Positions 13,029 through 19,203 of a stretch of 19,203 nucleotides of DNA are shown here, in pieces. Below the pieces are notes generated by a model. That model saw nothing but the letters and a program-made list of their open reading frames with translations. It was not told the DNA's origin and did not search any database. Numbering within the stretch: position 1 is the stretch's first letter; each line of letters starts with the position of its first letter. Source of the DNA: a virus; the UHGV virus genome UHGV-0124605; one strand, given 5' to 3'. The translations under genes and the position numbers were made by a program.

Positions 13029-15025
13029 TGGCTAAAGCATGGAAAGATGTTATCGCCTCTCCACAGTATCAGGCGTTAGCACCAGAACAAAAAGCGCAGG
13101 CTCAGGAGCAATACTTCAATGAAGTCGTGGCCCCGCAAGCCGGAGAAAATGCAGAGCAGGCTAAGCAAGCTTTCTATGCTGCCTATCCATTGCCATCTGT
13201 GCAGCCAGTGGAGACACAACAACCAGTAGCACAGCAACAACCACAGCAAAGTGGATTTATGTCTGATCTTGGTGAAGCAGTAAAAGAGACTGGTCGCGGA
13301 CTGGTGCAGGCTGGCGTGAACGTGGCAAACATACCTGCATCAGTTGCCGATGCTGTAACAAGCGCGGCGGCTTGGGCTGGCGGTAAACTCGGTATTGGCG
13401 ATGGTACATATCAACCAGCACCACGAGTAACAACGCAGGGATTAGAGCAGGACTTTGGCCTTCAGCAAGGTGCGCTGACTCCACAAACGACAGAGGGAAG
13501 GGTATTTGCTGAAGCATTGCCTTACCTCACTCCTGCTGGCGTTGAGAGAGCGGCGGTACAGGCACCAACACTTGCTGGTCGAATTGCTCAGGGGGCAACT
13601 CGCCTTCTAGCAGAAAACGCAGTTGGATCACTTGCTGCAAATAGTGCGAAAGATGATGCGGAAGCACTCGCCACCGATTTAGGCGTTGGTGTACTTGCTG
13701 GCGGTGCTATTAACGCTGCCGGACGTGGATTAGGTGCTGCTTATCGTGGCGTTCGTGGTGCTATCGCGCCAGAAGCGCAGCAGGCTATCAGATTTGCAGA
13801 GCGTGAAGGAGTTCCTCTGCACACCACAGACCTGTTACAACCAACTTCCCGCGTCGGAAAAATGGCGCAGACTACAGCAGAAAATATCCCTCTGGCTGGC
13901 ACAAGCGGAATGAGAGCAACGCAACAGGAAGCTAGAAGCCAGTTGGTGCAGAGATTTGCTGATAAATTCGGTGAGTATGATCCAGCGGTTGTTATTGACA
14001 GCCTTAAAGCGAAAACATCAGGAATTCGTCGTGCTGCAGGGAATCGTCTTGAGCAGGTTCAGAATGCAATGGCGGGAGTCAATATCCAGCCTGCGCGAGC
14101 AATTCAGCAGATTGATACTGAGATATCTAATCTGCAGAAGCTTGGTAAGGTAGCTGATAACGAGACAATTTCAAAACTTCAGTCATATCGTGATGAGCTT
14201 GTTCGCAATGCTGGTCCTGATGGTCCGGTAAATCTGGATTTGAAGCAATTAAGCGACCTGCGCAGCCAGTTCAGAATGGACGTGAAGGGTGAGCGACCAG
14301 TGTTACCAAACCGTTCCGATGCTGCCATTCAGCGCGTTTACAAGGCAATGACTGACGATATCAATGGTGCCATTGGTCAGAATCTTGGCAACGATACTCT
14401 CCGTAAATATCAGCAGGCCAATGCCGTCTACGCTGACGAAGCGGCGAAACTAAAGAATACCAGGCTGAAGAATGTTCTCATGAAAGGCGACCTGACGCCG
14501 GAAGTCGTCAACAACATGCTATTCAGCAAGAACAAATCGGAAATTAAGACGCTGTATAACTCAGTTGGTCGTGTTGGCAGGGCGCAAATGCGCAATGGCA
14601 TCATTGGAAAGGCGATGGAGAAATCTGGCGGATCCCCTGACCAGTTCCTTCGGCAGCTTAACATCCTGCAAAACCAGACTGGCATCACATTTAAGGGGCA
14701 GGACGCTGCTTATCTGAAAGGATTAAAAAACTACCTGCAATCCACGCAGCAGGCTGCAAAAGCGGCAGTAACAACACCCACAGGGCAGCAAACTATCCCG
14801 TTCATTATTGGGTATGGGACGGCAATGAACCCGGCGACAACTGGCGCAGCAGTAAGCTACGGACTTCTTACTCGCGCCTATGAGAGCGAGCCATTCAGAA
14901 ATGCAATGCTCCGAATGGCAAACACCCCACGCGGATCAACAGCGTTTGAGAAAGCCATGCAGCAGGCACAAAAGGCAATTAACGCTATGACGCAGGGGGC
15001 TAAGTCTGATGCGTTGTCAGAATAG
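13028..15025 (+). CDS. 16: Ejection (E) protein gp16-like
   Basis: 665 aa in the syntenic position, the last gene of the late structural block before the accessory region. Ala/Gly/Gln-rich as in gp16-type proteins. Confidence 0.8.
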   Translation: MAKAWKDVIASPQYQALAPEQKAQAQEQYFNEVVAPQAGENAEQAKQAFYAAYPLPSVQPVETQQPVAQQQPQQSGFMSDLGEAVKETGRGLVQAGVNVANIPASVADAVTSAAAWAGGKLGIGDGTYQPAPRVTTQGLEQDFGLQQGALTPQTTEGRVFAEALPYLTPAGVERAAVQAPTLAGRIAQGATRLLAENAVGSLAANSAKDDAEALATDLGVGVLAGGAINAAGRGLGAAYRGVRGAIAPEAQQAIRFAEREGVPLHTTDLLQPTSRVGKMAQTTAENIPLAGTSGMRATQQEARSQLVQRFADKFGEYDPAVVIDSLKAKTSGIRRAAGNRLEQVQNAMAGVNIQPARAIQQIDTEISNLQKLGKVADNETISKLQSYRDELVRNAGPDGPVNLDLKQLSDLRSQFRMDVKGERPVLPNRSDAAIQRVYKAMTDDINGAIGQNLGNDTLRKYQQANAVYADEAAKLKNTRLKNVLMKGDLTPEVVNNMLFSKNKSEIKTLYNSVGRVGRAQMRNGIIGKAMEKSGGSPDQFLRQLNILQNQTGITFKGQDAAYLKGLKNYLQSTQQAAKAAVTTPTGQQTIPFIIGYGTAMNPATTGAAVSYGLLTRAYESEPFRNAMLRMANTPRGSTAFEKAMQQAQKAINAMTQGAKSDALSE

Positions 15026-15115: not shown

Positions 15116-15601
15116 TTATCTGATGTTACTGCTACTGTTGCATGTGACTGTATTTCCAAACCCTGAATTGCAGTTTGTGTAAGTGTCAACTCGTGTTGGA
15201 TAGGGTTGAGTTATAACAGGCTGTCTCGCTTTTTGCTCGATCGCTTGCATTGTGTTTACAGCCTGATAATTCAATAAAGCCTGCTGGAATGCTTGGCTTT
15301 GCGCTATTTGTTGGGCTTGTTCTTGGCTTTGTAGTTGAACATAAAGATTCTGAAGCTCAAGTCTTGCCTGCGCGTCACTTATCTTGCCATCATCGACACC
15401 TTGCCCGAGCATCTTCGCAGCAAGGACATATAACTTAGGTGTTGGTGCTGATGCCATGCGTGAGTCGTTCTTCACGCTAGCATCAAGGCAATTAGCCATA
15501 TCGCTAAGCTTTGGATAGCGTTGTTCGCAATTTGCCTGATAGTCGCTAACCTTTGCACACCCTGCCAGCAGAAGCGGGATAATTAACAGTGATTTTTTCA
15601 T
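15116..15601 (-). CDS. Predicted lipoprotein (161 aa), function unknown; candidate superinfection-exclusion or lysogenic-conversion protein
   Basis: On the - strand, strong RBS AAGGAGAG 7 nt upstream of the ATG at 15601-15599. Signal peptide MKKSLLIIPLLLAGC with lipobox LAG|C. Mature part has two Cys pairs and a Gln-rich helical segment. The ORF-track start at 15631 would place the RBS inside the coding sequence, so I prefer 15601. Confidence 0.7.
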   Translation of the reverse strand: MKKSLLIIPLLLAGCAKVSDYQANCEQRYPKLSDMANCLDASVKNDSRMASAPTPKLYVLAAKMLGQGVDDGKISDAQARLELQNLYVQLQSQEQAQQIAQSQAFQQALLNYQAVNTMQAIEQKARQPVITQPYPTRVDTYTNCNSGFGNTVTCNSSSNIR

Positions 15602-15735
15602 ATGATTAACTCTCCTTATCTTTGCCATCATGGCACTGTTGGGTGTAAATGAGTTATTAACTCAATCGACAATATCTTCACGAAAATACTTTTTATTATT
15701 AAGATCTTTCTGATTCTAACAAAACGTAAAGTAAT

Positions 15736-16155
15736 ATGAAGAGGATTATCGGCGTCGTTGCTGGCGCTATATTGTTATCTGGGTGCGCAACTATTGTTGG
15801 TGACGAAACACAGCTTGTGCAAGTGAACAGCAATCCTTCCGGCGCGAGCTTTAAGGTAAAAGACGAATCAGGCGTGATTGTTGCGCAAGGTAAGACCCCG
15901 CAAGGAGTAACTCTTGCCAAGTCAGATGGTAGTTATTTTGGCAAAAAGAGCTACCAGATCACTATGGAGAAGGATGGGTACGAACCAGTTACCCTGCCAA
16001 TCAAAGCCAATGCTAATGGTTGGTATATTGGTGGAAACCTTGTGTTTGGTGGGTTAATTGGTTGGCTTGCTGTAGATCCATTTAATGGCGGGATGTATAC
16101 CTTGAAGCCTAAAGAGGCAAATGCATCCCTTATACCGTCCACAAAGCAAGACTAG
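15736..16155 (+). CDS. Predicted lipoprotein (139 aa) with PEGA-like beta domain and Gly-rich hydrophobic C-terminal segment, function unknown
   Basis: Signal peptide MKRIIGVVAGAILLSGC with lipobox LSG|C. NSNPSGASFKV...GKTPQGVTL...GYEPV resembles a PEGA-type domain. C-terminal WYIGGNLVFGGLIGWLAVDPFNGGMY is glycine-zipper-like. Followed by a terminator hairpin. Confidence 0.7.
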   Translation: MKRIIGVVAGAILLSGCATIVGDETQLVQVNSNPSGASFKVKDESGVIVAQGKTPQGVTLAKSDGSYFGKKSYQITMEKDGYEPVTLPIKANANGWYIGGNLVFGGLIGWLAVDPFNGGMYTLKPKEANASLIPSTKQD

Positions 16156-16162
16156 TAAATGG

Positions 16163-16186
16163 AACCCACCATCAGGTGGGTTTTTT
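16163..16186 (+). terminator. Rho-independent terminator hairpin between the convergent lipoprotein and mnt genes
   Basis: AACCCACC (16163-16170), loop ATCA, GGTGGGTT (16175-16182), then TTTT. The downstream arm overlaps the last codons and stop of mnt on the opposite strand. Confidence 0.6.
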
Positions 16187-16423
16187 GTACAAATCCTTCA
16201 GCGTATCAAACACCATCTTCTTAACAAGTTCAGACTGCTCATCAGCGATACGTTCCGCATCGTCTCGATAGCCTGAAATTTTGGATGGCTTTGATACAGC
16301 ATCAGTCACTATCTGAACTAATTCTGAATTAAGAGAGCGGCCATTGGATTTGGCTCGCTGTTTTAGTTTTTCCTTTAATTCGTAAGGTAGCCGCAGATTA
16401 AATTGCGGGTCATCTCTTCCCAT
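16172..16423 (-). CDS. mnt: Mnt repressor (ribbon-helix-helix, Arc/MetJ family)
   Basis: 83 aa: MGRDDPQFNLRLPYELKEKLKQRAKSNGRSLNSELVQIVTDAVSKPS...GYRDDAERIADEQSELVKKMVFDTLKDLYKKPT, near-identical to P22 Mnt as recalled, same length. Confidence 0.93.
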   Translation of the reverse strand: MGRDDPQFNLRLPYELKEKLKQRAKSNGRSLNSELVQIVTDAVSKPSKISGYRDDAERIADEQSELVKKMVFDTLKDLYKKPT

Positions 16424-16455
16424 TCTTGATGCCTCGCTCTTGTGAGTGGATCGGC

Positions 16456-16484
16456 ATCTTATTATCTGCTGGTTGCATCCTCAA
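16456..16484 (-). promoter_or_regulatory. Candidate sigma70 promoter for mnt (Pmnt)
   Basis: On the - strand, TTGAGG (complement of 16479-16484), 17-nt spacer, TAAGAT (complement of 16456-16461), about 30 nt upstream of the mnt ATG. Consensus-like only; not verified. Confidence 0.3.
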
Positions 16485-16487
16485 TAA

Positions 16488-16500
16488 GACCACGGTGGTC
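16488..16500. promoter_or_regulatory. Mnt-operator-like palindrome GACCAC-G-GTGGTC
   Basis: Perfect 6-bp inverted arms around a central G. The core CCACGGTGG is the same as I recall for the P22 mnt operator. Lies between mnt and the tailspike start. Confidence 0.55.
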
Positions 16501-16557
16501 GTATTTTTGTTTAATAATGAATCACTGCGGCCATTCCTTGTATCTGGAGCAAATTAA

Positions 16558-19203
16558 ATGACAGACATTACAGCCAATGTTGTAGTGAGCATGCCTTCGC
16601 AACTCTTTACTATGGCCCGCTCTTTTAAAGCCGTAGCTAATGGCAAAATTTATATCGGTAAAATTGACACTGACCCAGTAAATCCTGAAAACCAGATTCA
16701 GGTTTATGTGGAGAATGAAGACGGTTCTCACGTTCCTGTTTCGCAACCTATAATCATTAACGCTGCTGGATATCCGGTATATAACGGACAGATTGCCAAG
16801 TTCGTAACTGTGCAAGGCCATTCTATGGCTGTTTATGATGCGTATGGTGCACAGCAGTTCTATTTTCCTAATGTGCTGAAGTATGACCCGGATCAGTTTA
16901 AACAAAAAGTATTATCAAATGATATGCTAAATATGTCTCCTCTTTATTTTGGAGCTAAGGGGGATGGGATTAGCGATGATACTGAAGCATTTGTCGCGTT
17001 GGAAATGGATATAAAAAATAGGGTTATTGATTTAAGTGGAAGAGCATTTTTTGTTACTAAAAGTTTTATTGAAAATAGCTATATAAATGGTTCTTTTATT
17101 CGTGATGGCAGTAAACGAATTGCGATTGGTGATCTTAAATTAAGAGATAAAAGAGAGCCATTGATATTTTCCGGAATGCCAAAAGTATATAACACCAGAC
17201 ACACGTTGCGCAGAACTGAAGGTGCGGGTGGTTTATATGCGGTCATTCAGGGGTGTTGTTATGATGAAATTAACGACAAGATTTTTACTTTATCATCTAC
17301 CACAGCATACGGTTATTGCATTAATGCCTTTGACGTGACGAATTCTGGTGAACTAGGAAGATACGACAGAACCCGTTCTACTGAACTTGGGCATCAGGGG
17401 CTTGGATTGCATCATAATCCTGATGGTACTGTCGTGCTGTGGACATCGAAGCCTTATGGAACCGATGCCGCCAATCAATGTATTTCGATGGAAAATATAT
17501 TGAGTTACACAGGGACAACCAACGGAGTATCTGAAGGTTTTATCACCTGGAAGTTGTTCCCCTATGATGGAATGAGCGCAAGCTCTACTCCAACTGTATC
17601 AAGTTGTGAAAACTATCTCCTTGCCAAGAAAATTTCATCGGATGGAATTACCTGCACGGTTCGTGTTTTCGACATAGTCAGCATGTGGAATAACAGAGCT
17701 CATAAAACTGATTATAGTGATGATTATTTAGTTGAGTTTAGCTATCAAAAACCATCACAAGAAGCATTTACCCAATCAATTGCTTGCGATGGGGCATACA
17801 TTTACATACTTGAGTCACATACGTATGTTGGCATGACTAATTATATTTACGTATTTGACTTAACAGGCAGGTTTATTGAGCGAGTAGATATTTCAACTGT
17901 TGGTGATGATGAAGCAAAATCTGACAGTACAGGAACTCCTGTTTATAAAGAGCCTGAGTCCCTAACAGTAATTAGAACGGAGAGTGGGTATGTTTTAACG
18001 CTGGGGATATGCACATATAAAGGAGTTGCTGAGAACGGGAAAAATGTATATCTGTTTGATATAGGCAGGTCTGGTTCGGTAGTGCAAAGCAAAGCAAGCC
18101 GTTCTGTATCCAGTAATACTGGTCTTCATAGTTCTGGCTCCCCGGAGTTCAAATATGGAGTAAGGGAGTACAATGATACTTTTCACTGGACAGTTTGGCC
18201 AACAAGAAAGGGTATTCAAACTAACCGGGATAACCCTATATTGTTTCTTGATGGCGGAATTACTGGTGGAATGCAGTTAGCTTCAAACGGCACGGAAGGG
18301 ATGAGCAACTCATGGGTTTCCCGGCATCAGTCAGACACCGCAGAAGGACCAAGAGCAATAATGTATAAGTCTCGCTCTGGTGTTGTATCAACTGATAATT
18401 TTGGAGCTCTGCAGACAGGGGATGTATTGGGTACTCATGTATGGGCCGGTGATACAGGTAGCAAGGCTGTGCAATGCGCACGCATTAAATGCGTCACAAG
18501 AGGTAATCCTTCCGGAGACAATATCCCGGTTGCTTTCTACTTTGGAACCATGGGTGAGAGTGACGGCTTGCGTGACAGATGGGTATTAACAGAATTAGGT
18601 CATTTTCGACCATCAGGTTCAAATATTTATGATATTGGTACACAGTCGAATACTGTCAGAAACCTGTATATAAATAATAGCCCCATTGTAACCAGCGACA
18701 GAAATCACAAGCAGGATGAAGCTTCATTATCTGATGCAGAACTACGGGTTGGAATGGCTATTTACCCGCTGATAAAAAAATTCAGAATGAAGGATGCTGT
18801 AAAAGAAAAAGGCTTGTCAGCGCGTGAGCATATCGGTGTAATTGCGCAAGATATACAATCCATCTTTGAATCTGAGGGGCTTGATGCATTTTCTTATGGG
18901 GTTCTTTGCTATGAAGAGTGGGATGATGAGTATGAGAAAGTCTATGCAACAAGAAATGTGACCAGAAAAATTTTAATTGATGAAGAGTCTGGTCAGTATG
19001 ATGAAATCACAGAGGAAGAAGAGTATGAAACTGGTGAAGTAAGGTTAATTATGGAATCAGGAAGAAAATTATCAGTGCGCTATGACGAGTTAATGTTTCT
19101 GGCAATGAGCGCACTATATCATCACCATGAGCAGGATATTGCCAATATCACATCAAAGATTAATAATCTGGAAAAATTATTAAAGTTAACACTAAATGGT
19201 TGA
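16558..19203 (+). CDS. 9: Tailspike protein, mosaic: P22 gp9-type head-binding domain, uncharacterised central receptor-binding/depolymerase-like domain, endosialidase-type C-terminal intramolecular chaperone (peptidase S74-like)
   Basis: 881 aa. Residues 1-113 match the P22 tailspike head-binding domain from memory ([11 protein letters not shown]...[33 protein letters not shown]...QGHSMA.YDA.G.Q....NVLKYDPDQ). The centre begins with a [13 protein letters not shown] motif. The C-terminus ([11 protein letters not shown]...HIGVIAQDI...[10 protein letters not shown]...) resembles the K1F endosialidase chaperone domain. TGA stop is at the window end. Confidence 0.93.

Follow-up and report, generated by a model that had tools for sequence, protein, structure and literature searches.

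The window analysed here, a stretch of 19,203 nucleotides taken as a whole, represents the late region of an E. coli phage or prophage of the P22-like (Lederbergvirus) group. Among phage records, vB_EcoP-720R6 and Gally come closest, with about 95-97% identity over the region, and E. coli chromosomes reach up to 98.5%. At the locus of interest, mnt points leftward and the tailspike gene rightward, with a spacer of 134 bp (16424-16557) between them (Table 1). Two moron genes, at 15116-15631 (minus strand) and 15736-16155 (plus strand), lie between a gene 16 homologue and mnt; they match PHROGs 6067 and 6823 and have no Pfam match. The gene at 15736-16155 is homologous to epsilon34 gene 15, and its product is possibly a membrane protein because it has a glycine-rich hydrophobic end. 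Similarity of the tailspike to most relatives ends near 16898, past the head-binding domain of about 113 amino acids, which is the usual mosaic joint. The best PHROG match of the remaining tailspike is a tail spike with colanic acid degradation activity.

Table 1. Features of the mnt-tailspike locus in window coordinates
Feature	Position	Strand	Description
Strong intrinsic terminator	16163-16186	+	AACCCACC-atca-GGTGGGTT and T run; follows moron ORF 15736-16155; overlaps the 3' end of mnt
mnt	16172-16423	-	83-aa Mnt repressor, RHH domain and C-terminal tetramerisation domain, Gln6 variant, N-terminus MGRDDPQFNLRLPY
Decayed Pant remnant	16451-16479	+	TCGGCA (16451-16456), 17 bp, TGCATC (16474-16479); from alignment to P22 and epsilon34
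Predicted Pmnt -10, TAAGAT	16456-16461	-	ATCTTA on the plus strand; TTGAGG-17-TAAGAT, 8/12
Predicted Pmnt -35, TTGAGG	16479-16484	-	plus-strand reading CCTCAA; separated from the operator by one base
Mnt operator counterpart, AAGACCACGGTGGTCGT	16486-16502		core palindrome 16488-16500, centre G at 16494; aligned to the P22 operator AGGTCCACGGTGGACCT
Hypervariable T-rich junction	16503-16524		indels among relatives, without a conserved element; from alignment of 36 unique spacers
Tailspike leader	16525-16557	+	GGAG ribosome-binding site (16546-16549); conserved; common to P22, CUS-3, HK620 and Sf6
Tailspike gene	16558-19203	+	881 aa; P22-type Head_binding N-terminus (Pfam E 8e-68)

The Mnt repressor and the operator counterpart

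As the initial annotation proposed, mnt is an intact gene. Its product matches the Pfam families PF03869 (Arc, E 2.8e-22, above the cut-off) and PF11423 (Repressor_Mnt, E 2.2e-18), as well as the PDB entries 1MNT (E 2.8e-34) and 1QEY, the tetramerisation domain, over residues 53-83. It is 77% identical to P22 Mnt and has both the N-terminal ribbon-helix-helix (RHH, Arc-like) domain and the C-terminal tetramerisation coiled coil of that protein. The DNA-contact residues of P22 Mnt, which we take to be Arg2, His6, Asn8, and Arg10, are retained except for His6, which is replaced by Gln in the window protein and in all mnt-only relatives. With the initiator Met uncounted, Gln6, Leu9, and Leu11 of the window Mnt stand against His6, Phe9, and Met11 of P22 Mnt. 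The Gln6 Mnt is best described as a predicted specificity variant whose fold is not lost. The strand of Arc (MPQFNLRWP) is identical to the PQFNLR strand of the window Mnt, but Arc binds a different operator of 21 bp as two dimers and does not have the C-terminal tetramerisation domain of Mnt.

The spacer is too short to hold arc or ant, as had also been claimed; no Arc- or Ant-sized ORF fits, and ORFs for arc, sar, and ant are all missing. A 43-aa ORF with a TTG start in the spacer was considered and rejected as coding, since indels of 11-13 bp in relatives shift its frame. Rfam gave no RNA family across the window. When P22 and epsilon34 are aligned with the spacer, homology to the annotated Pant/Pmnt/Oarc/Omnt region of P22 extends over the entire block. 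The window is like P22 immI in its homologous mnt and divergent promoter region and in the placement of the operator by the Pmnt -35 and CTCAATA, whereas it lacks arc, sar, ant, the ant terminator, and the Arc operator, and the Pant hexamers have decayed.

The palindrome GACCACGGTGGTC at 16488-16500, which 57 bases separate from the tailspike ATG, had been suggested to be an Mnt operator. Alignment of the spacer with P22 immI bears this out: the palindrome falls column for column on the annotated mnt operator, behind the common CTCAATA flank (ctcaatAGGTCCACGGTGGACCT in P22, ctcaatAAGACCACGGTGGTCGT in the window). Like P22 Omnt, it belongs to a 17-bp odd-centred dyad located at the same place by the Pmnt -35, in the interval that separates mnt from the rightward genes. 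GTGGACC is the best Mnt half-site according to the Stormo group, with position 7 mattering less than 3-fold (PMC2726951). The window departs from the P22 half-site GTGGACC with GTGGTC(T/G): its half-sites are GTGGTCT and GTGGTCG, in which position 5 is changed from A to T in both halves, and position 7 is changed too.

A perfect 6-1-6 palindrome arises in 3% of shuffled spacers, and the whole window holds 20 of them (4.6 +/- 2.3 in shuffles). Palindromy alone thus proves nothing, and the proposed operator identity rests on homology and position. The 6-1-6 palindromes lie, for example, at 1055, 1741, 4218, 6223, 7178, 8877, 9594, 11549, 11794, and 12870, and also at 13113, 15623, 15651, 16319, 17133, 18110, 18481, 19136, and 19157. 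No motif is common to the 20. Centreless palindromes are depleted in the window (10 with an arm of 5, 18 in shuffles), and Gally has only a mild 6-1-6 excess (17 vs 9.8).

Repressor-operator pairing among relatives

The initial annotation regarded the arrangement as unusual. It is in fact published and common, a variant of the P22 ant moron in which mnt is the only gene retained; such an mnt-only ant moron has been described for ST64T, ST104, Para1, and L (PMC2629481, PMC8022706). The tailspike gene directly follows mnt in ST64T, ST104, L, SE1, ST160, SPN9CC, and others, and in the E. coli phages Gally and 720R6. The mnt-spacer-tailspike stretch is complete in 104 of 5426 complete E. coli genomes. 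A literature search for Mnt in Lederbergvirus with the tailspike returned no papers. The window spacer aligns end to end with those of ST64T, L, ST160, and 720R6 at a mean column identity of 90%. Like the window, the mnt-only phages carry gene 16, small moron genes, a leftward mnt, a spacer of about 135-150 bp, and the tailspike gene, and they share the Gln6 Mnt N-terminus, the AAGACCAC-N-GTGGTC operator, the Pmnt position, and the tailspike leader. The window and its closest relatives differ from them in a T-rich insertion after the operator, in the absence of 11 bp between CTGCGGC repeats, in the centre base G, and in a right arm that ends in G instead of T. The upstream moron genes of the window match epsilon34 gene 15, not orf62 of ST64T.

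The missing 11 bp (CTGTGGCAATG or CTGCGGCAATG) concern 16525-16535 and are absent from the window and from four survey loci (L032, L044, L050, and L057). In most relatives, such as L001, they stand between two CTGCGGC repeats, and the difference looks like a slippage deletion within the tailspike leader.

Loci with Mnt relatives were taken from IMG/VR and GTDB genomes and analysed by script. The window-type N-terminus MGRDDPQFNLRLPY is encoded at 70 loci with 36 unique spacers, and none of the 70 has arc or ant. Mnt is full-length in 68 of them; the two truncated cases, one of which (L066) also has a mutated operator arm, can be seen as the occasional decay expected in prophages. A full-length tailspike start directly follows the spacer at 60 loci, and at the other ten the tailspike gene is mostly broken after a few codons (e.g., L025, L053, and L057). 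An AT-rich insertion breaks it after five codons (MTDIINRNCYLIIFEN*) in L025, L036, L053, L054-L057, L062, L066, and L071. The break in these roughly ten related prophages lies about 140-260 nt after the mnt start, and at this site the Kapi1 record lists two products, a hypothetical protein and an HNH endonuclease.

The operator arms GACCAC/GTGGTC are perfect at 64 of the 70 loci, and the centre base is free (A22/G19/T14/C9). In the 36 unique spacers, almost no variation occurs between the mnt start and the operator. Substitutions and indels are abundant directly after the operator, and conservation returns over roughly the last 33 bp ahead of the tailspike ATG. Fixed arms, a free centre, and an indel-rich flank form the pattern that would be expected of a dyad bound by a protein.

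The type of Mnt and the type of operator go together. Gln6 Mnt is always found with AGACCAC-N-GTGGTC(T/G), at the 70 loci and in L165 and L181, two far more divergent relatives that differ in Mnt and in the tailspike N-terminus and still have TAAGACCAC-N-GTGGTCTTA followed by the tailspike gene. His6 Mnt (MARDDPHFNFRMP, initiator Met uncounted) is always found with GGTCCAC-N-GTGGAC(C) and arc; this holds for 103 of 105 IMG/VR loci found by pattern, the remaining two being cut by contig ends, and for P22, epsilon34, Pluralibacter, and Pectobacterium. This pairing essentially comes from two clades and a few outliers, and thus from few independent events. One further Gln6 Mnt, from Phlomobacter, has the site ATATCACGGTGATAT with T at half-site positions 5 and 7. 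A scan for the bare operator AAGACCACNGTGGTC across the collection was rejected as a census, since its matches (at least 120) were mostly chance occurrences in unrelated coding sequence, and an mnt was adjacent in only 25 cases.

The pairing argues that the operator would be the working partner of Gln6 Mnt. His6 is the classic specificity residue of Mnt, and literature searches for contact data on His6 yielded nothing usable. In RHH proteins, the beta-strand enters the major groove and sets specificity (PMC3325190, citing Knight and Sauer 1989). Since the half-site change is matched by the change from His6 to Gln in the DNA-reading beta-strand, Gln6 Mnt would bind its own predicted operator and probably not that of P22. 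Gln6-GTGGTCT and His6-GTGGACC would then give a classic model repressor a naturally occurring pair of altered specificity. Such a specificity could also account for the finding that phage L genetically lacks a P22-type immI function (PMC8022706).

Related half-sites are found outside the Mnt proteins. L123 and L126 encode unrelated RHH proteins with the strand EDPQFKLR, each preceded by two or three tandem GACCACNGTGGT sites upstream of its own gene. The palindromes, (A/G)GACCACNGTGGT(C/T), lie at about 7690-7790 in L123 and 8190-8260 in L126, both IMG/VR sequences that are not P22-like, and the downstream RHH protein of 146-147 aa starts with MSREDPQFKLRMP. Tandem sites before the own gene are the usual autoregulatory layout. 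It looks as though repressors with a PQF strand and the half-site of the window Mnt form a wider family.

Promoters and transcription into the tailspike gene

On P22, the hexamer scan placed Pant (TTGACA-17-TATATT, 11/12) and Pmnt (TTGAGA-17-TATCAT, 10/12) where they are annotated. The predicted Pmnt of the window matches the consensus at 8 of 12 positions, which is under the standard scan threshold, and it aligns with the P22 Pmnt. Its position is the same in every relative group, including E. coli, Salmonella, and diverged relatives, and no other promoter-like pair is conserved across them. The counterpart in ST64T and L is TTGTGG-17-TATGAT, and L165 and L181 have comparable pairs. From the predicted Pmnt start, the operator spans about -37 to -53. 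A site centred near -45 could activate, repress, or have no effect.

Pant, in turn, has decayed. Its remnant in the window matches at 6 of 12 positions, lacks A2 and T6 of the -10, and is missed by promoter scans. Phage L and ST64T retain TCGGCA-17-TATATC (8/12), and the key T6 of the -10 is missing everywhere. The TAGA boxes of the Arc operator, which lie between the Pant hexamers in P22, are gone from the window. Promoter scans of the window and the relative groups found no rightward promoter conserved among the relatives. Since Pant has decayed as well, late transcription must enter the tailspike gene by read-through of the moron and of the terminator at 16163-16186. This terminator folds with -18 kcal/mol (z -3.4), and a terminator is annotated at the same place in epsilon34. 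According to the literature, the P22 tailspike gene is likewise reached by late read-through. The tailspike gene of the window would thus be served, without a promoter of its own, by antiterminated late transcription through the moron.

Possible roles of an orphan Mnt

The spacer is probably what remains of a divergent Pant/Pmnt region, in which mnt, Pmnt, and the operator would be maintained, most likely as an autoregulatory unit; we give this reading a probability of about 0.7. In this scenario, arc, sar, and ant would have been lost from a P22-type immI, and the decay of Pant would have followed. The elements kept would be mnt, the leftward Pmnt, and a 17-bp Mnt operator that lies upstream of the Pmnt -35 and is separated from it by one base. 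The operator would most likely serve to autoregulate mnt in the lysogen. Negative autoregulation would be favoured because it is the usual behaviour of RHH proteins and fits the layout seen in L123 and L126. In P22, Mnt raises the activity of Pmnt indirectly by shutting Pant.

Between the window and ST160, both of which belong to mnt-only lineages, mnt shows 21 synonymous and 9 non-synonymous differences, a dN/dS of 0.09. This selection, the conservation of the operator, and the retained promoter argue that mnt still works. One of two options in the initial annotation, a relic operator that only autoregulates mnt, is hence retained in part: autoregulation fits best, whereas the low dN/dS, the conserved arms, and the kept Pmnt speak against a relic. 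The authors who described phage L were undecided between a remnant and a new role for its mnt. Since selection is strong while self-regulation alone gives no obvious benefit, Mnt probably has a second target or role. Neither the window nor the complete Gally genome contains a second operator-like site (up to 3 mismatches).

The Rha-family gene at 50-592 had been suggested as a substitute antirepressor. This suggestion is not supported. The ORF has Phage_pRha and ORF11CD3 domains and is 54% identical to P22 Rha, whose gene occupies the same map position, between the lysis genes and gene 3, alongside the full mnt-arc-ant region. As P22 carries both rha and ant, the window Rha belongs to the ordinary gene content of the P22 group and does not take the place of Ant. 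Its surroundings contain no operator-like site. Gally (L217) has a second Rha-family "antirepressor" gene at 32951-33673, in the nin region and outside the genome part covered by the window, and no Mnt-operator-like site lies near that gene.

A different function would be control of the tailspike. Mnt bound at 16486-16502 would repress a residual rightward promoter or block RNA polymerase that reads in from the late operon or the moron, and would thereby set tailspike dosage or silence the tailspike in lysogens. The only transcription path into the tailspike gene does contain the operator, the order mnt-operator-tailspike is kept in the diverged L165 and L181, and the Pant remnant is better in phage L and ST64T. 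Nevertheless, we consider this control unlikely. The window remnant lacks the two -10 positions named above, no rightward promoter is conserved across groups, and both length and sequence between the operator and the ATG vary freely. Furthermore, P22 has the same operator in the same path, so that the situation is not new, and late transcription is antiterminated and occurs upon prophage induction. The other option of the initial annotation, direct gating of rightward tailspike transcription by Mnt, is therefore not upheld, given the 6/12 Pant and the lack of another conserved rightward promoter.

A somewhat more doubtful version holds that Gln6 Mnt and AAGACCAC-N-GTGGTCTT constitute a distinct immI specificity class that would be kept for limiting or silencing the tailspike. 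The tie to the tailspike start has held over long evolutionary distances (the window, ST64T, L165, and L181), but nothing in the sequence requires a roadblock of read-through into the tailspike gene. If it were true, a repressor would have been re-used, moving from the control of an antirepressor to that of a virion enzyme.

Mnt might instead act in trans as a guard against incoming or co-resident phages with the same operator type, shutting off their antirepressor promoter so that the prophage is protected from antirepressor-driven induction. P22 Mnt contributes to immI immunity in this manner, as is established for P22 (PMC8022706), and such a role would account for the strong selection on an orphan repressor and for its wide spread among E. 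coli genomes (104/5426). No target was found, however: a Gln6-type operator with an Arc start behind it had 0 matches in IMG/VR, compared with 105 for the P22 type, and arc or ant occurs at none of the Gln6 loci (0/70). The ant morons of the CUS-3 type use His6 Mnt and different sites, and neither the window nor the Gally genome has a second site. We rate this guard function as improbable, at about one chance in ten.

CUS-3 was considered as an ant-bearing target of the Gln6 type and rejected, as it is of a different type. At 4000-5035 of L324, and similarly in L072-L075, it has tandem mnt-like genes that encode a His6 Mnt and an 85-aa RHH protein (strand NPQVNLRLP). CUS-3-type ant morons also contain a small Arc-like ORF and ant, and direct repeats (ATGCGTACC) replace the P22 operator.

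It is very improbable that the palindrome serves as an RNA hairpin, that is, as a weak intrinsic terminator or attenuator before the tailspike gene. A terminator scan does flag 16488-16500 with the T run, GTATTTTTGTTT comes next in the window, and in P22 a terminator separates ant from gene 9. The fold, however, reaches only -6.3 kcal/mol (z -0.65 vs shuffles), compared with -18 kcal/mol for the real terminator at 16163-16186. The T run is missing in the Salmonella group and altered in 720R6, and the arms are conserved as sequence, without compensatory changes. Least credible of all is the idea that mnt and the palindrome are decaying relics without function, which truncated Mnt or single arm mutations in L066, L071, L015, L028, L037, L045, and L057 might suggest, but which is opposed by the dN/dS of 0.09, by full-length Mnt in 68/70 and perfect arms in 64/70 loci beside an indel-rich spacer, and by the retention of the unit across Salmonella, E. 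coli, and more distant relatives.

Many RefSeq records name the Mnt repressor "partition protein ATPase", which calls for caution in the use of annotations. The label is attached to Mnt in NC_014900, NC_011802, NC_004348, NC_005841, NC_011976, and PHROG 795. Since the Pfam and PDB matches contradict it, it is almost certainly a propagated mis-annotation.
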